A stretch of DNA of 64,000 bases from an uncultured Candidatus Saccharibacteria bacterium (GCA_964613715.1 CAZTJK010000002.1:40355-104354); one strand, 5' to 3'; shown: positions 27,789-48,795, counted from the first letter of the stretch. Notes: a model not told the origin generated them from the sequence alone. Translations and numbers: made by a program.

Positions 27789-28802
27789 ATGTCTTTTTTT
27801 ACTCGCAAACTCGGCATCGATCTCGGTACGGCGAATACTCTTGTCTTTCTGCCGAATAAGGGCGTAGTCCTTTTTGAGCCATCGGTGGTTGCCATCGCCG
27901 AGCAGGACAATAAGATTCTCGCAGTAGGACTTGAAGCGAAATCCATGATCGGCCGCACGCCGGATTCAATCATCGCGTATCGCCCGATGAAGGACGGCGT
28001 CATCGCGGACTATCGCGTGACGGAAGCGATGCTGCGCTATTTCATCGACAAGGCACTCGGCAAGTGGAATATCTTCAAGCCAGAGGTCATGGTTTCGGTG
28101 CCGGCTGGTATCACGTCGACGGAGCGCCGTGCAGTCGTTGAAGCAGCTATTCGCGCCGGTGCCAAGAATGCATATGTCGTGAAAGAGCCGATCCTTGCAG
28201 CGATCGGCGCGGGCATTCCTATTTATGAGCCGATGGGGCATATGATCGTGGATATTGGTGGTGGCACGACGGACGTTGCGGTTATATCGCTTGGTGGCAT
28301 CGTGGCATCGACATCAGTGAAATGCGCGGGCAATAAGATCGATGCGGCGATTGCTGACTATATCAAGAAAACATTCAATCTTGCGATCGGCGACAAGACA
28401 GCCGAGGATATCAAGATCAATATCGGTTCTGCCGTGCCGGTTGAGGACGAGCTTGCCATGATGATCAAGGGCCGTGATTTCCTCACAGGGCTTCCGCGCT
28501 CGACCGAAATCAAGACGAATGAAATTGTCAAAGCCATTTCAAAAGAATTGAAAGACATGATCAAGGCGATCAAGGATGTCTTGCAGGATACGCCGCCCGA
28601 GCTTGCCGCGGATATTATTGATAATGGTATCATCATGACCGGCGGCTCTTCGCAGCTGCGCAATCTGACCGAGCTTGTCTTCCGCCGTACGGGCGTCAAA
28701 GCGCAGGTTGCCAAGGACCCGCTCTATTGTGTGGCGAAGGGGACTGGTACTGCCCTTGAGCATCTTGATACCTACAAGAAGTCGATCATTGCAAAGCGAT
28801 AA
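27789..28802 (+). CDS. mreB: Rod shape-determining protein MreB paralog (Mbl-like second copy)
   Basis: 337 aa; actin-fold phosphate-1 (GIDLGTANTLV), DIGGGTTDVAVIS, GIIMTGGSSQLRNL. Confidence 0.85.
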   Translation: MSFFTRKLGIDLGTANTLVFLPNKGVVLFEPSVVAIAEQDNKILAVGLEAKSMIGRTPDSIIAYRPMKDGVIADYRVTEAMLRYFIDKALGKWNIFKPEVMVSVPAGITSTERRAVVEAAIRAGAKNAYVVKEPILAAIGAGIPIYEPMGHMIVDIGGGTTDVAVISLGGIVASTSVKCAGNKIDAAIADYIKKTFNLAIGDKTAEDIKINIGSAVPVEDELAMMIKGRDFLTGLPRSTEIKTNEIVKAISKELKDMIKAIKDVLQDTPPELAADIIDNGIIMTGGSSQLRNLTELVFRRTGVKAQVAKDPLYCVAKGTGTALEHLDTYKKSIIAKR

Positions 28803-33424: not shown

Positions 33425-34486
33425 ATGTTCGAAAGTCTCAAGAAAAAAATCCAGAAATATTTTTCAAACGATATCGGCATCGATCTCGGTACGGCCAATA
33501 CGCTGGTTTACCTTGCTGGCAAAGGCATCGTCATCAATGAGCCATCAGTGGTCGCGCTCAATCAAAAGACCGACCGCGTGGTCGCAGTCGGCGTGCAAGC
33601 GAAGGAAATGCTCGGCCGCACCCCGCCGCATATCGTTGCAGTCCGGCCGCTTGTCGACGGCGTTATTTCTGATTTCGAAGTGACGGAAGAAATGATCGCA
33701 TATCTCGTGAAAAAGGCTGAAGAGCTTTTGCCGAAAGTCATCGGGCCACGCGTGGTGGTCGGCGTGCCATCCGGCGTTACGAACGTGGAAATACGCGCTG
33801 TGCGTGATGCGACGCGAAATGCCGGCGCGCGCGAAGTGCATATCGTCGAGGAGCCAATGGCAGGTGCCATCGGCATTCGTCTGCCGATTCATGATCCGGT
33901 CGGCTCGATGGTAATCGATATCGGCGGGGGAACAACGGATATCGCCGTCATATCGCTTGGTGGCATCGTGCGTTCGAAGAATCTCAAGATCGCGGGCGAC
34001 AAGCTCAACAACGACATCGTGAGCTATATCCGCGGTGAGTTCAAGATACTCATCGGCGAAAAAACGGCCGAACAGATCAAAATGTCGATCGGTGCAGTCG
34101 TTTCCGGCGGGCATCTCGAATCGTCCATCAAAGGCCGCGACCTCATCACTGGCCTGCCACGCGAAGTAATACTCACAGATTCGGATGTCCGCGAAGCGAT
34201 GTCCCAATCGATCGAATCACTTGTCGATGCCACGAAAGAAGTGCTCGAGACCACGCCACCCGAGATTCTTGCCGATATCATGCAGCGTGGTATCTATCTT
34301 TTTGGCGGCGGCGCGCTCATCAAGGGCTTGGACGCGCTCTTGCACGAATATCTGAAAATTCCGGTGCGTATTGCTGATGACCCGCTTACGGCGGTTGCGC
34401 GCGGCACCGGCATCATCCTCGAGAATCTCGACACGTATCGCGACGTATTAATCCAGAACGAAGATGCCTTACCGCCAAAGAAATAA
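33425..34486 (+). CDS. mreB: Rod shape-determining protein MreB
   Basis: 353 aa; GIDLGTANTLVY, DIGGGTTDIAVIS, GIYLFGGGALIKGLD; followed by mreC-mreD-PBP2 as in canonical mre operons. Confidence 0.9.
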   Translation: MFESLKKKIQKYFSNDIGIDLGTANTLVYLAGKGIVINEPSVVALNQKTDRVVAVGVQAKEMLGRTPPHIVAVRPLVDGVISDFEVTEEMIAYLVKKAEELLPKVIGPRVVVGVPSGVTNVEIRAVRDATRNAGAREVHIVEEPMAGAIGIRLPIHDPVGSMVIDIGGGTTDIAVISLGGIVRSKNLKIAGDKLNNDIVSYIRGEFKILIGEKTAEQIKMSIGAVVSGGHLESSIKGRDLITGLPREVILTDSDVREAMSQSIESLVDATKEVLETTPPEILADIMQRGIYLFGGGALIKGLDALLHEYLKIPVRIADDPLTAVARGTGIILENLDTYRDVLIQNEDALPPKK

Positions 34487-44985: not shown

Positions 44986-45014
44986 ACCTCGTAGAAATAC
45001 GAGGTTTTTCTTTT
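44986..45014 (+). terminator. Rho-independent terminator after lipoprotein gene
   Basis: cctcgta-gaaa-tacgagg hairpin + TTTTTCTTTT. Confidence 0.75.
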
Positions 45015-45043
45015 GTGACCTCTGTTATCCAGAATTGGAACAC
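45015..45043. repeat. Repeat R1: tRNA-3'-end-like element (gtgacctctgttatccagaattggaacac)
   Basis: About 80% identical to R2 at 47103-47131; shares GTGACC with the tRNA-Glu acceptor end; contains conserved mini-hairpin tctg-ttatc-caga with compensatory changes relative to R2. Confidence 0.6.
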
Positions 45044-45186
45044 GATTTTTGAACATGTCAAAAACTTCTGGTCATTCCGACCCGATGAACAGGTAACCGA
45101 TACGGCATTCCTCGCCGCATGAATGAATTGTATGCAATACCGATTCATCCAAAAGAGGAAGAAAAATATCCATTTGGATAGGAAGA

Positions 45187-45429
45187 TCAGAACTGTCCTG
45201 TCCGCTTACTCCTGCTTTTCTTTCCGATTGATTTCATATGGTCCGGCAATGGCTCGGGGCTGGTATGGTCATACGCAATGCTCGGATTCTCAACCCCTTT
45301 ACTCTCCAGGAAGCACTGAAGGGCCAGCTGTGCTTGCTGGTAGAGGAGGTCACGGATCTCCCAGAGCTCGTCATCCGAGACATCCTTCAGTGCAGGATCG
45401 ACTTTTCTCAATTCTTCAAAGCTCAACAT
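45187..45429 (-). CDS. Hypothetical small protein A1 (divergent partner of XRE regulator, module 1)
   Basis: 80 aa; paralogous to 47217..47546(-) (MLSFEELRKVDPALKDVSDDELWEIRDLLYQQAQLALQCFLE vs MMTLKQLRELEPSLKDLPDHEVFRIRQLLYDHAMLALSCFLE). Confidence 0.55.
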   Translation of the reverse strand: MLSFEELRKVDPALKDVSDDELWEIRDLLYQQAQLALQCFLESKGVENPSIAYDHTSPEPLPDHMKSIGKKSRSKRTGQF

Positions 45430-45541
45430 GGTGTGTATTGGTTAGGTGGATAAAAGCACTCGTGTACGGTAGCACCTACAGGACGATTCAGGACCTATCC
45501 AAAAGGATGCTTTTCTCTAGCTTCTTCGTGCTACGTTCATT

Positions 45542-45760
45542 TTGTATCATCGCACTATGACTCTCAAAAACCATATTGGGCTCAATATCCGTCTCTATCG
45601 CCGGCTCAAAGGGCTGACGCAGGAGGAATTAGCCATCCAGGCAGGGATGCATGTGAATACAATCATTCAGCTTGAGGATCTAAGAAGGAAAGCGAATCCG
45701 AGGGTGGAGACGTTGGAGAGACTGGGGAGAGTGTTAAGGGTAAAGGTATGTTATATTTAA
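45542..45760 (+). CDS. XRE-family HTH transcriptional regulator (module 1)
   Basis: 72 aa; HTH LTQEELAIQAGMHVNTIIQLE; paralog of 47657..47896 including shared C-terminal ANPRVETLERLGRVL. Confidence 0.75.
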   Translation: MYHRTMTLKNHIGLNIRLYRRLKGLTQEELAIQAGMHVNTIIQLEDLRRKANPRVETLERLGRVLRVKVCYI

Positions 45761-45781
45761 GTTTTAAACTACAGTTATCAT

Positions 45782-46984
45782 ATGCTCGAAAAGTTGAAGA
45801 ATATTTCAAAGATCATATTCTTGGTTGCCACAGTCTTTTATATCTTCGGTTTTATAACCATTAGTTCTTTTTGGGGACGTTTTGGAATTATTACATTTGA
45901 TATCGTAAATGCCCGTTTTTTGATTGCGGGTTTTTTCTGCGTAGTTTCAATTATTGTTTGTCTTTTGTTAGCCTGGGTTGTTTATAAAAGAGCGCCATTT
46001 AAGGATTTTTTTAATACTGAAAAATGGCGTGACAGATTTTTAGGATTTTTTGGTATTTGGGGTCTTCTTTACAGTGCGGGAGCAGTACTAACTAGTCTTT
46101 TAAATCTTGGTAGCTATCAACCACCTGCAGTAGAGACTTCATTAAAATTTAGTAATGTGACCGGATTTGACTATATTGGTATTTTTATAAAAAACCACAT
46201 CAATCTTGGTAATGGTGGATATGACTACGTCATTAAGGTAACACTAGAAATGTTCAGTTATATTTTTTTAGTTTTTTTATTAATAACTGCCTGTGTAATT
46301 ATTCATGGTTGGTTTCCTAAGAAGGACAAAAAATCTCTGGTCAGTGTCGATCAAGCTAGTCCTGAAATAGTAACGGAAAAAGCTCAAGATATTTTGGTAA
46401 CAGATAAAAAACCGCTTAATAAATACCTCCTCTTGCTAATGGTTAATGTAGAAATACTTGCAATCTGCGGTTTTATTAGCCTCTATATATTTTGTATATC
46501 AAAAGTAGGTACTGCATTTATTGATTTTTCTACTATCCAAAATGAGCCAAAACTTACAGCAACACTCTATTTTTCCTGGTTGTATGTTCTAGTAATGACT
46601 ACTTATGTTTTTTTAAATATTTCTTTTAAAAATGATTCTTTTTCCAATTTCAATCTTTTTAAAAAGATTGAAAATATTACTAATTATGATGATTTAATCC
46701 GACAAATTATTATCCCCATATTCAGCGCTGCAGTTGTGTTTGGTTGGACAATTTATCCACGTATACCTTTTGCTTTCGGCGGAGGACAACCAAGGTTAAT
46801 TCAACTCCAGTTGACTACTCCTTTGAATGTTTCTTCAACTTCAAAAGTTTACCTTTTAGGGGAATCAAGCCAATTTGTTTTTGTCGCAATTGTTAATAAA
46901 ATCAATTCGGAAGCACTAGAAATAAATAAAAATCAAATTGAATATATACAAACAAAAACCTTATCTGTGACCAGCGCTAAATAA
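45782..46984 (+). CDS. Hypothetical polytopic membrane protein, strongly AT-rich (cargo gene 1)
   Basis: 400 aa, about 9-10 hydrophobic helices, F/I/L/N/K-rich; composition sharply different from host genes; 21 nt after the XRE gene, so probably co-transcribed. Confidence 0.6.
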   Translation: MLEKLKNISKIIFLVATVFYIFGFITISSFWGRFGIITFDIVNARFLIAGFFCVVSIIVCLLLAWVVYKRAPFKDFFNTEKWRDRFLGFFGIWGLLYSAGAVLTSLLNLGSYQPPAVETSLKFSNVTGFDYIGIFIKNHINLGNGGYDYVIKVTLEMFSYIFLVFLLITACVIIHGWFPKKDKKSLVSVDQASPEIVTEKAQDILVTDKKPLNKYLLLLMVNVEILAICGFISLYIFCISKVGTAFIDFSTIQNEPKLTATLYFSWLYVLVMTTYVFLNISFKNDSFSNFNLFKKIENITNYDDLIRQIIIPIFSAAVVFGWTIYPRIPFAFGGGQPRLIQLQLTTPLNVSSTSKVYLLGESSQFVFVAIVNKINSEALEINKNQIEYIQTKTLSVTSAK

Positions 46985-47131
46985 AAGTTAGGCCAGATCC
47001 ATTTCTTTTCTTGTTTCCAAATCCCGTTAGGGTAGCCACTAAACATATTTTGGGAACCAAAAAATAACGCCTTATTTCTTCAAAAATCTATATTTAAATG
47101 TGGTGACCTCCGTTATCCGGGATTGGAACAC
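46985..47131. repeat. Repeat copy A: about 145-bp element starting at the cargo-1 stop codon and ending in tRNA-3'-like R2 (tggtgacctccgttatccgggattggaacac)
   Basis: Roughly 75-80% identical (by eye) over about 100 bp to the segment 48626-48730 that forms the 3' trailer plus 3' end of tRNA-Glu. Confidence 0.6.
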
Positions 47132-47216
47132 CATTATTCTGTACCTCAAGAATTTCAAGGAGGTAATGGGGCAAGAAGTGGTCGACGGAATGGATAGTAA
47201 TATTTTATTACCTGCA

Positions 47217-47546
47217 TTATGACGTAGCTTCTTCCTGTTTCCGTTTCTTTTCCTTCAAGGTCTTTTCATCAAGCAGATATTCTTCAATAGCTCCTGACAG
47301 CTTGTTCGCAAACCGATTCTGCATATACATCTCTTCATTCCCGGTATGTGAATCTCTATCTGGCCATTCGGTCAGATACGGCAGGGTAGTAGGTAGCTCA
47401 ATGGATTTACCCGTTTTCGTCTCCAAGAAGCAGGATAGGGCAAGCATGGCATGGTCATAGAGAAGCTGTCGAATACGAAAGACTTCATGATCAGGAAGGT
47501 CTTTCAAACTAGGTTCAAGTTCGCGTAATTGTTTCAAGGTCATCAT
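47217..47546 (-). CDS. Hypothetical small protein A2 (divergent partner of XRE regulator, module 2)
   Basis: About 109 aa from the internal Met pair (MMTLKQLRE...), which aligns with the module-1 paralog start; ORF track extends to 47609. Confidence 0.55.
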   Translation of the reverse strand: MMTLKQLRELEPSLKDLPDHEVFRIRQLLYDHAMLALSCFLETKTGKSIELPTTLPYLTEWPDRDSHTGNEEMYMQNRFANKLSGAIEEYLLDEKTLKEKKRKQEEATS

Positions 47547-47656
47547 AGGTGTGGATAATTTAATAGCTTGTAATAGGGGAACTCTGCGGATATTTTCCGA
47601 GAACGGCACATTAGACCGTCTTACCTACAGAGCAGGGGGAACGTATAGTAAAAAAC

Positions 47657-47896
47657 ATGTATACAAATAATATTGGATTTAATCTCCGTATTCATCGGAG
47701 AGCAAAGGGACTCACCCAGGATCAGCTAGCCCAACAGTCAGGAGTGCACTACAACACTATCGTGCAGCTGGAGAATCTTACCCGGAAGGCGAATCCGAGG
47801 GTGGAGACGTTGGAGAGGTTGGGGAAGGTTCTTGGAGTAGAAATTGAAAAATTATTACAACAAAAGGTACAAGGGTTAGAAATTTTACAAAATTAA
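47657..47896 (+). CDS. XRE-family HTH transcriptional regulator (module 2)
   Basis: 79 aa; HTH LTQDQLAQQSGVHYNTIVQLE; paralog of 45542..45760. Confidence 0.75.
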   Translation: MYTNNIGFNLRIHRRAKGLTQDQLAQQSGVHYNTIVQLENLTRKANPRVETLERLGKVLGVEIEKLLQQKVQGLEILQN

Positions 47897-47923
47897 TATT
47901 TCGATTTAGAATTAGTTAAATTT

Positions 47924-48625
47924 ATGGGTACAGAATCAAAAGTTACTTTTTGGAATCCAGAGCAGGTTGAATTTGTTTTTCAAAGCTATTTACTTTTAGA
48001 GCGTAAGTTATTAGAAATTCTTAAAGTTTTACCTTTGACACCCGAGAATGAAAATTCTTGGTCTCCCGAGTTGGTAAACATATTTTTGGATACAAGCAGT
48101 TTATTTGAGTCTGTTTGTAAATACGGTGCCTTATATGAGAGTTCTGAACCAAAAATTACAGAAATGAAGGAAAAATTTTTAGAAAAAGATGAGATTAATC
48201 AAGCTCGGGCGATTGTCTACGTATATCCGATACGCATTCTTAATCCATATGATCATTTTTCTTCCGCTGATGGATGGTGGAGGGTCTATCAAGGTTTTAA
48301 ACACAATCGAATAGAAAATTACAAACAAGCAAATCTTATTAATACGCTAAATGTATTGGCCGCACTCTTTCTTATTTTAGCAAAATACAAACAAGAAGAA
48401 TTCTCTAAAGCTCTACTCAGATTCCGGATTACTGACACTGGTTTTGCACCGGAGTTTTTCCATAGAGAGAGGAGTGGCGATCCCCATAAATTTTGGTATG
48501 ACAGCGAACTTTTTGGTACCCCAGAACAAACTAATTCACTTTCTTCTAATGATCCAGCAGATATTAAGACTTATGGAAGCAAGAAATTTCATGCCTTTAT
48601 GGGTCGTTTTAACTTAGCTGCCTAA
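47924..48625 (+). CDS. Hypothetical soluble protein, AT-rich (cargo gene 2)
   Basis: 233 aa; no recognisable motifs; 27 nt after the XRE gene; composition foreign. Confidence 0.55.
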   Translation: MGTESKVTFWNPEQVEFVFQSYLLLERKLLEILKVLPLTPENENSWSPELVNIFLDTSSLFESVCKYGALYESSEPKITEMKEKFLEKDEINQARAIVYVYPIRILNPYDHFSSADGWWRVYQGFKHNRIENYKQANLINTLNVLAALFLILAKYKQEEFSKALLRFRITDTGFAPEFFHRERSGDPHKFWYDSELFGTPEQTNSLSSNDPADIKTYGSKKFHAFMGRFNLAA

Positions 48626-48720
48626 AGTTAGTGGTTCCAAATCCTGTTAGGGTACCCATGTTTAGAATTTCAAACCTCTGAAAATATTGCCTCATTTTCT
48701 CACAAATCTACATTTAACTG
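48626..48720. repeat. Repeat copy B: conserved 3' trailer of tRNA-Glu, homologous to copy A
   Basis: Begins at the cargo-2 stop codon, runs to the CCA end of tRNA-Glu; shares ccaaatcc(c/t)gttagggta... and aaatcta(t/c)atttaa(a/c)tgtggtgacc with copy A. Confidence 0.6.
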
Positions 48721-48795
48721 TGGTGACCTTACGGGGAATCGAACCCCGATTACAGGCTTGAGAAGCCCGTGTCCTAACCGTTAGACGATAAGGCC
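48721..48795 (-). tRNA. tRNA-Glu (anticodon CTC) with encoded CCA
   Basis: rc sequence GGCCTTATCGTCTAACGGTTAGGACACGGGCTTCTCAAGCCTGTAATCGGGGTTCGATTCCCCGTAAGGTCACCA: acceptor 7 bp (one GT), D-stem GTCT/GGAC, anticodon stem CGGGC/GCCTG, loop TTCTCAA, T-arm CGGGG-TTCGATT-CCCCG, discriminator A, CCA. Confidence 0.8.

Follow-up and report, generated by a model that had tools for sequence, protein, structure and literature searches.

In the staphylococcal SCCmec, ACME and pseudo-SCC elements, recombinase-less modules stand in tandem at the 3′ end of a conserved gene and are bounded by direct repeats, and they are moved in trans by the Ccr large serine recombinase (LSR) of a neighboring or other element (PMC7029739). 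In serine integrases, a 9-bp zinc-ribbon (ZD) motif occupies half-site positions 16-24 of attP and 11-19 of attB, and this 5-bp shift toward the center in attB underlies directionality (Rutherford et al. 2013, PMC3783163). The 3′ ends of tRNA genes are targeted by 44.5% of tyrosine-integrase elements versus 4.9% of those with a serine integrase, and as of 2020 tRNA genes had not previously been reported as serine-integrase targets and proof was still needed (PMC7192596). We found no description in the literature of arrays in Patescibacteria such as the one presented here.

The locus lies in a 64-kb stretch of DNA (64,000 nucleotides), the whole of which is called the window. Positions 45015-48795 are flanked on one side by a host division/cell-wall cluster of mraZ, rsmH, an ftsL-like gene, ftsI, a murF-like gene and a lipoprotein-like ORF, and on the other by yqeY, rmuC and leuS. 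Between them stand two units that share one plan: a core copy, the 22-nt CYGTTATCCRGRATTGGAACAC, a small ORF on the minus strand, an HTH gene on the plus strand, a cargo gene and a conserved stretch of 95-115 nt. The GC content drops to about 0.30-0.33 in the cargo region. We conclude that the repeated element is probably the attachment-site junction of two tandem, recombinase-less cassettes at the 3′ end of tRNA-Glu(CTC), served by an LSR supplied in trans. The features of the locus are as follows.

44986-45005, plus strand: terminator-like hairpin of the lipoprotein-like host gene; the chromosomal B′-side flank by the far junction
45015-45021: R1 core GTGACCT; attR-type far junction composed of short arm, core and host flank
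45022-45075, minus strand: short arm of cassette 1, a P-type half-site that reads AAGTTTTTGACATGTTCAAAAATCGT-GTTCCAAT-N13-GGTCAC on the tRNA strand
45034-45041: T-loop-like motif in the short arm of cassette 1
45187-45429, minus strand: small ORF of cassette 1, 80 aa with two predicted helices
45542-45760, plus strand: XRE-type HTH regulator of cassette 1 (Pfam HTH_3, 8e-09)
45782-46984, plus strand: cargo gene 1, 400 aa, membrane-rich, AT-rich
46985-47100, plus strand: long arm copy A, with GTTTCCAAATCCCGTTAGGGTAGCCA at 47013-47038, its inverted partner TTTGGGAACC at 47049-47058, and a conserved AAATCTATATTTAAATG block up to the core
47101-47109: internal core TGGTGACCT, the cassette-cassette junction, the same as the tRNA 3′ end including CCA
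47110-47165, minus strand: short arm of cassette 2 (R2), with its T-loop-like motif at 47122-47129
47217-47546, minus strand: small ORF of cassette 2, ~109 aa from a conserved ATG
47657-47896, plus strand: XRE-type HTH regulator of cassette 2 (Pfam HTH_3, 4e-12)
47924-48625, plus strand: cargo gene 2, 233 aa
48626-48720, plus strand: long arm copy B, with GGTTCCAAATCCTGTTAGGGTACCCA at 48633-48658, ATTTCAAACC as its degenerate partner, and AAATCTACATTTAACTG reaching to the core
48721-48795, minus strand: tRNA-Glu(CTC), intact (ARAGORN; Rfam tRNA, 61.8 bits)

The tRNA 3′ end recurs as a direct repeat at the borders of each unit (at 45015, 47101 and 48721), delimiting cassettes of 45015-47109 and 47103-48729, and the tRNA gene itself is left intact. 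The core TGGTGACCT is common to the internal junction (47101-47109) and the last 9 nt of the tRNA (48721-48729), and is represented by GTGACCT at R1; within the tRNA, a B-type half-site, GGTCAC comes 16 nt after the start of the T-loop GTTCGATT. Along the tRNA strand, the tRNA ending in AGGTCACCA is followed by long arm B and cassette 2, then by short arm R2-AGGTCACCA with long arm A and cassette 1, and last by short arm R1-AGGTCAC and the host terminator. Long arms are found only beside the tRNA core and the internal core, and short arms accompany only the internal core and the far one; leftward of the R1 core the sequence is that of the host, with no long arm. A long arm after the core, a short arm before it, and both together at the internal junction constitute the pattern expected of two site-specific insertions at one attB. 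Copy A with R2 is an intact attP-like site (short arm, core and long arm), copy B with the tRNA is the tRNA-side hybrid site, and R1 is the far hybrid site. Judging from the shared identity, the crossover would lie inside AGGTCAC and be confined to it. The original prediction had allowed the repeat to be either an RNA structure or a recombination site, and the latter option is borne out, as the repeats coincide with the tRNA-side, internal and far junctions of a tandem insertion of two cassettes.

The duplication of an element directly after two stop codons, also part of that prediction, withstood proper alignment. Copy A (46985-47100) and copy B (48626-48720) are alignable over ~90 nt with a local score of 53, compared with 16.4 ± 2.6 in 2000 dinucleotide shuffles, none of which reached 53 (z = 14.3), and their blocks of similarity reach 89% in a stretch of 27 nt and 84% in one of 49 nt. 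A (G/T)GTTCCAAATCC motif begins 88 nt ahead of the core in both copies. R1 (45015-45043) and R2 (47103-47131) are identical at 26 of 29 positions, and together with their flanks they score 34, versus 13.9 ± 2.2 in shuffles (z = 9.0). As had been stated, the two copies start at the stop codons of unrelated genes: a TAA directly precedes each, and cargo 1 and cargo 2 have no significant similarity (BLASTP E = 0.61). Inside the 64 kb, a search for further copies returned only the known ones, with no extra arm copy when each arm pattern was searched with three mismatches (0.00-0.05 expected).

Related loci were collected from the contigs of small-ORF relatives and by scanning a genome collection with the short-arm pattern. 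Six other loci, from metagenomes or MAGs and probably of Patescibacteria, have arrays of the same architecture at tRNA-Glu or tRNA-Ala, each with different cargo; two further loci end before any tRNA. A MAG that is syntenic with the window (leuS-rmuC-yqeY-tRNA-Glu(CTC)-...-murF; L012) holds at tRNA-Glu(CTC) one 1.07-kb single-gene cassette without HTH or small ORF, and the same MAG has two cassettes at tRNA-Glu(TTC) (L013). Two cassettes with Abi_C and HNH genes occupy tRNA-Glu(TTC) in L017 and L018, and in L016 tRNA-Ala(TGC) bears four cassettes and tRNA-Ala(GGC) a single one. The contigs of L007, L008 and L009 have the core GGGCAC and end before the tRNA; L007 contains at least two cassettes and a terminator followed by the core, as at the far junction of the window, and only the right half of L008 was used because that contig is a palindromic assembly artefact (1-798 and 799-1596, 100% complementary). 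L014, from a Ca. Tayloriibacteriota MAG, has the core GGTCAC and one short arm, with the tRNA absent within the locus. Past the T-loop-like motif of R2, the flank is conserved and is common to L007, L008, L009 and L022.

Across these loci, the core changes with the target tRNA and the arms are constant. Arms and a core make up the constant parts of a cassette, and the HTH gene and the small ORF are optional. The label of cargo given to the enclosed genes is apt, as every related array has other genes between its conserved arms. Moreover, the cassettes at a given tRNA differ between related genomes, a point in favor of insertion over duplication. Three of the six genome-contig matches (Paenibacillus, Opitutaceae and Promineifilaceae) have neither tRNA nor arms and were set aside as chance. 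Among viral contigs, one 17-mer arm pattern gave six matches to that motif only, as would be expected of chance or unrelated phage sequence, and the longer short-arm pattern gave none.

The window contains no recombinase of any kind. Homologs of the small ORF lie directly upstream of ~505-aa LSR genes in L020-L026 (hmmsearch E 1e-15 to 1e-21 with a profile of the window-type proteins), accompanied by a rolling-circle Rep or a divergent HTH gene, and these LSRs have Resolvase, Recombinase and Zn_ribbon_recom domains. The family counts more than 3,000 members at E<=1e-20, which belong to Patescibacteria or Nomurabacteria wherever named. LSR genes abut the same tRNAs with the same arms, and in three relatives, L022 and L026 among them, the gene runs into the tRNA. 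In L022, an element of ~5.9 kb, the LSR ORF at one end crosses TTGGTGACC into tRNA-Glu(TTC), and the other end reads GTTCCAAT-N13-GGTCAT adjoining host DNA. In L026, the LSR ORF crosses the core and overlaps tRNA-Ala(GGC); at tRNA-Ala(TGC), 6 kb from there, a cassette carries a 389-aa LSR minus its catalytic domain, aligned to CcrA 118-256. Three core copies in L024 bound an LSR element and a recombinase-less segment with an HTH and a 216-aa gene, by tRNA-Glu(TTC). The short arm GTTCCAAT-N13-GGTCA(C/T) is located at the opposite end of the element in both L022 and L024. Because the LSR is absent from the window and present in L022, L024 and L026 with the same arms, the window cassettes would be dependent, non-autonomous units. 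With no recombinase in the window itself, we infer from these relatives that an LSR acts on the window cassettes, and assume that it does so in trans.

The long arm appears to be linked to the recombinase gene as well. At tRNA-Ala(GGC) in L016, the long arm is a remnant of an LSR C terminus (67% identity over 42 aa, E 3e-12). The last ~160 nt of the LSR gene contain GGTTCCAAA-N40-TTTGGAACC, coding RFQN...KFGT, ~52 nt before the core, and copy A in the window contains GTTTCCAAATCC...TTTGGGAACC ~42 nt before the core, with the second member degenerate in copy B. Given this shared motif layout, we read the window long arm as the putative counterpart of the LSR gene 3′ end in the autonomous relatives, in which case the cargo would have replaced the recombinase ORF. 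The match between the window long arms and the LSR 3′ ends is one of motif layout only and does not extend to the protein level, and no protein-level LSR remnants were found in the window cassettes beyond the tail antisense to the tRNA. The HTH/small-ORF pair is inverted relative to the arms in the window compared with L021 and L026, so the cassettes are not simple deletion derivatives and their history includes rearrangement.

The same architecture could in theory have been built by a tyrosine integrase through accretion of integrase-less elements, either of CIME type or satellites, with lambda-like P and P′ arms and GGTTCCAA as arm-type binding sites. The site of ~170-190 bp with several direct and inverted motif copies does resemble a lambda-type attP, and tyrosine integrases readily form tandem arrays and have tRNA 3′ ends as their classic targets (PMC7192596). 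We nevertheless consider this reading unlikely, since neither the window nor the related loci (~264 kb) yielded a Phage_integrase-type gene, LSRs are the sole recombinases at these tRNA junctions, with ORFs that cross the core, and the long arm of one cassette is an LSR gene remnant. A motif scan and Pfam searches of candidate ORFs found no tyrosine recombinase in the window, and tblastn with XerD and lambda Int found none at E<=0.1 in the window plus 28 loci (29 sequences, 328 kb).

That no site-specific enzyme is now at work, and that the arms are homology handles or leftovers of duplication which recombine homologously, for example after DNA uptake, would fit the absence of a recombinase in cis. 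The arms are 75-90% identical and long enough for occasional homologous exchange, and the two SRA-derived metagenome contigs, from two runs, are both identical to the window and contain neither an alternative arrangement nor an excised circle. What makes such a history improbable is the precision of the junctions: the last 7-9 nt of the tRNA recur at a fixed register at every one of them, over three tRNA identities and many cargoes. Plain duplication, in addition, would have copied the cargo too, yet the cargo is unrelated, and it would not be expected to leave different cassettes at the same tRNA in related genomes.

The preferred reading, site-specific insertion by an LSR, gains further detail from the short arms. 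All 19 short arms have exactly 13 nt between GTTCCAAT and the core, placing the start of the motif 21 nt before the core, although all short arms are homologous, so that this constancy may be partly inherited and the spacings are not independent observations. The N13 spacers themselves differ widely (for example tctggataacaga, cctggaggatgag, tttctaaacagag and tcgctcccgttag). In the tRNAs, 8 nt separate the real T-loop, GTTCGATT or GTTCGAGT, from the same core, and the loop starts 16 nt before it; thus, the mimic lies 5 bp further out. This offset between cassette and tRNA matches the published attP/attB zinc-ribbon shift, a non-trivial fit that concerns one half-site only. When the motifs are set in the registers of Rutherford et al., the center falls between GG and TC inside the shared core, giving sites of ~40 bp and ~50 bp. 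The opposite half-sites, that is the long-arm start and the host flank, are AT-rich, vary between cassette types and are without a symmetric copy of the motif. The T-loop GTTCGATT in attB and its mimic GTTCCAAT in attP would both present the motif that is read by the zinc-ribbon domain.

R1 and R2 had originally been taken for tRNA 3′ fragments, which is not confirmed. Both have the T-loop-like GTTCCAAT and an acceptor 3′ strand, yet the two are 5 nt further apart than in the tRNA; ARAGORN and the Rfam tRNA model (E<=10) detect only the real tRNA, and there is no T-stem pairing around GTTCCAAT. For the ‘pseudo-tRNA 3′ end’, a recombinase half-site imitating the target T-loop at a shifted register is a better reading than a decayed tRNA.

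A covarying mini-hairpin in R1 and R2 had likewise been regarded as selected for its structure. The larger sample does not uphold this, as 57.9% of cells pair over 19 short arms from 12 loci, compared with 50.6% in shuffles and 37-45% in slid controls, and each of the four pairs is broken in 4-11 of the 19 sequences. The compensatory change between R1 and R2 is one event, and there is at most a weak pairing tendency. This weak excess is one of the few observations that would favor an RNA element, such as a tRNA-like 3′ UTR, a terminator or an antisense RNA, with either the small hairpin or the GGTTCCAAA/TTTGGAACC pair under selection; the others are that the element starts at stop codons and that the inverted motif pair is able to form the base of a long fold. 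We regard an RNA function of this kind as very improbable. Single-strand folds of the junctions are no better than those of shuffles (z of -1.5 and -0.8), the hairpin is unpaired in 42% of cells, and copy B has a degenerate right-hand inverted partner. Apart from that of the real tRNA, no Rfam family comes near its gathering score, the long arms have no terminator-like site, and the motifs recur at DNA junctions regardless of gene orientation (L013 and L016). An integron-like system, in which the 147-bp element would be an attC-type single-stranded fold cut at a GTTRRRY core, is barely credible: there is an array of short cassettes, some single-gene and mostly without a recognizable promoter, the inverted motifs pair with one bulged A, and copy A begins GTTAGGC, the link drawn by the original prediction, but this start is a chance match, as ~78 GTTRRRY sites are expected per window and the GTTAGTG start of copy B does not fit, and in addition neither IntI nor any other tyrosine recombinase was found, the fold lacks significance, and the exchange point is the mid-site tRNA core rather than the edge.

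On the tRNA strand, each cassette comprises a long arm of ~95-115 nt, variable genes, a short arm ending in GTTCCAAT-N13, and a copy of the last 7-9 nt of the tRNA; the variable genes in the window are the cargo and XRE regulator on one strand and the small ORF on the opposite one. On the LSR reading, an LSR of a Patescibacteria family, provided in trans, would recombine the tRNA gene as attB with the cassette site as attP. Recombination of attP with a hybrid site is, to our knowledge, not a reaction of canonical serine integrases, and tandem stacking therefore requires an extra assumption. One speculation is that recognition is dominated by the half-site on the tRNA side or the mimic side, in which case the tRNA junction would stay attB-like and the downstream junctions attP-like, allowing both stacking and excision. 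A distal long-arm motif was also considered as a docking site for the next cassette and was rejected, since junctions are always at a tRNA-type core and the inverted pair is spaced variably, by 20-40 nt.

Excision by serine integrases requires a recombination directionality factor. In the Rep-small ORF-LSR operon of the relatives, the small ORF stands where an excision or directionality factor would be expected, and the window cassettes have retained it. The two small ORFs of the window are 34% identical and have four close relatives among 5.8 billion protein clusters, and an exhaustive profile search yielded 107 cluster representatives at E<=1e-3, nearly all of 50-110 aa with the N-terminal 45 residues in common. 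The predicted model, a confident one, consists of two helices (pLDDT 81), with no structural match in the PDB and no match in Pfam, PHROG, PADLOC or NCBIfam. The two HTH regulators are 65% identical, and that of cassette 2 resembles capH and the control (C) proteins of restriction-modification systems. Neither cargo protein of the window has a match in the same four libraries; some related cassettes carry defense-like cargo, namely Abi_C, a PD-T7-4-like protein (7e-14) and HNH.

The repeats mark a genuine mobile-element junction whose general kind is already known, and its novelty lies in a tRNA-linked serine recombinase, a shifted T-loop mimic and miniature cassettes without a recombinase. 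Together with its relatives, the locus provides a coherent set of tRNA-linked serine recombinase cases. With its readable logic of a T-loop paired with a 5-bp-shifted mimic, it would carry the zinc-ribbon register rule over to a system that occurs in nature and can be re-targeted (Glu, Ala and a third tRNA). For ultra-small genomes with few recognized mobile elements, it would offer a route for swapping small units, and serine integrases with conserved, predictable tRNA targets are possible tools for genome engineering. A broader but doubtful idea, which we put forward tentatively, is that Patescibacteria possess an integron-like serine-recombinase platform in which tRNA genes are permanent acceptors, cassettes of 1-2 kb, often single-gene, are the mobile parts, and a single half-site sets directionality. 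If so, the real T-loop in the B register would mark the tRNA side and the 5-bp-shifted mimic the cassette side, the tRNA junction would be attB-like after each insertion and the cassettes hence stackable, and their excision could proceed by the same reaction, with an LSR in trans driving it and the small ORF possibly tuning it.

Each of the known systems that come closest shares some of these properties. Integrons and tycheposons, like this locus, array small cargo units at a fixed acceptor site, and tycheposons use tRNA genes and leave partial-tRNA repeats behind. Both, however, use tyrosine recombinases, and attC is recombined at its edge as a folded single strand, whereas neither a tyrosine recombinase nor an edge-recombined fold is seen here. 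The autonomous relatives of ~6 kb resemble AICEs of the pSAM2 type in having a rolling-circle Rep, small ORF and integrase operon and in integrating at tRNA genes. The operon order of pSAM2 is repSA-xis-int, and the small ORF of the relatives, though without a structural match, stands at the xis position. Unlike in pSAM2, the integrase is a serine and not a tyrosine recombinase, and the Rep matches REP_ORF2-G2P, the match to RepSA being faint. The CIME concept reportedly stems from work on ICESt1 and CIMEs of Streptococcus thermophilus. Like CIMEs and tyrosine tandem islands, the cassettes accrete at a tRNA 3′ end, keep internal att sites, lack an integrase and depend on a relative (PMC7192596), but the associated enzyme here is a serine recombinase, and a tyrosine recombinase was not found in the window and 28 loci.

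The sites themselves are most readily compared with those defined for the Listeria phage A118 / LI integrase (Rutherford et al. 2013), in which attB and attP also share only short identity around the crossover and both have an 8-9 bp motif that is 5 bp further out in attP, within ~40 and ~50 bp. In our case, the motif occurs in only one half-site per partner, the target is a tRNA, and conserved sequence with extra motif copies extends ~100 nt beyond the 50-bp attP.

As a whole, the closest analogue, in function only, is the ccr-less module in an SCCmec/ACME composite island. There are clear differences, in that the target is a tRNA gene versus rlmH, the cassettes measure 1-2 kb versus 10-60 kb, the hosts are Patescibacteria-like, and the cassette site mimics the T-loop of its target. 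The related LSR is also not a Ccr ortholog, its best NCBIfam match being CcrB with E 2e-32 and 112 bits against a cut-off of 900. What the two have in common are stacked modules without a recombinase, bounded by direct repeats of the target and, as we propose for the window, moved by an LSR in trans.

A motif of the window's long arms recurs, almost unchanged, within coding sequence. In relatives, homologs of the small cassette ORF directly precede the gene for the large serine recombinase (LSR), and in four such loci the 3' end of this ORF, shortly upstream of the LSR start codon, contains a common motif:

L020:2790, L021:4715, L022:9941 and L024:9959: DNA motif GGTTCCAAA(N)CCCGTTAGGGT

In the small ORFs it encodes GSKxPVRV or GSKNPLG, and the distal motif of the long arms in the window (47013-47038; 48633-48658) is almost identical at the DNA level. 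The motif may be a recombinase binding site located inside a coding region, for example for autoregulation.

At its other end, the LSR ORF runs across the attachment core in three related loci:

L022:11358-11515, L024:11386-11554 and L026:11329-11509: end of the LSR ORF across the core

The final 10-20 LSR codons are formed by the antisense strand of the tRNA. Since the reading frame spans the core and its tail is antisense to the tRNA, the LSR C-terminus cannot be the same when the element is integrated as when it is excised. L026 also contains a much reduced cassette:

L026:16340-17795: cassette at tRNA-Ala(TGC), hardly more than one LSR gene

This LSR gene lacks the N-terminal catalytic domain, and the cassette looks like a decay intermediate between an autonomous element and a recombinase-less cassette.

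Two further features lie inside cassettes, the first in the window and the second in an array locus at tRNA-Glu(TTC):

47166-47222, + strand: 18-codon ORF MGQEVVDGMDSNILLPAL, with short arm R2 on one side and the small ORF on the other
L013:3925-4560: ~640 nt of non-coding, hairpin-rich sequence located between small ORF and short arm in one cassette

The 18-codon ORF is preceded by a strong GGAGGT Shine-Dalgarno sequence, overlaps the stop of the cassette-2 small ORF and has a counterpart retained in L007, a related locus (MGQEAFDVVDSNLLIPAL). The L013 stretch had no Rfam match at gathering thresholds.

The window itself encodes two full-length MreB paralogs 5 kb apart:

27789-28802 and 33425-34486: MreB paralogs

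DprA, ParB and many aminoacyl-tRNA synthetase genes are also present, and together with the MreB pair they make the genome look small and streamlined. The nearest relatives found are CPR/Patescibacteria MAGs.

The cassette arms contain additional repeats:

L016:16718 and 16782; L026:16430 and 16366: two direct GTTCCAAT copies, type-I short arms
L012:5706-5745: 40-bp near-perfect palindrome GGTTCCAAATAGGAAGGGTACCCTACGGGGATTTGGAACC in the long arm

In the type-I short arms the extra GTTCCAAT copy lies 64 nt upstream of the first, with a conserved block, TTCGTCCTCTTGTTTCTCAAAATT...AAGTTTTTGATATACAAAAAAATCTG, between the two. A perfect palindrome in the Logan contig L008 (1-1596; arms 1-798 and 799-1596), with its axis 20 nt from the cassette core, was rejected as an assembly artefact; its arms are 100% complementary without a spacer. 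The L012 palindrome matches a serine-integrase attB in size and symmetry; the two copies of the motif are spaced 24-40 nt apart in other cassettes.
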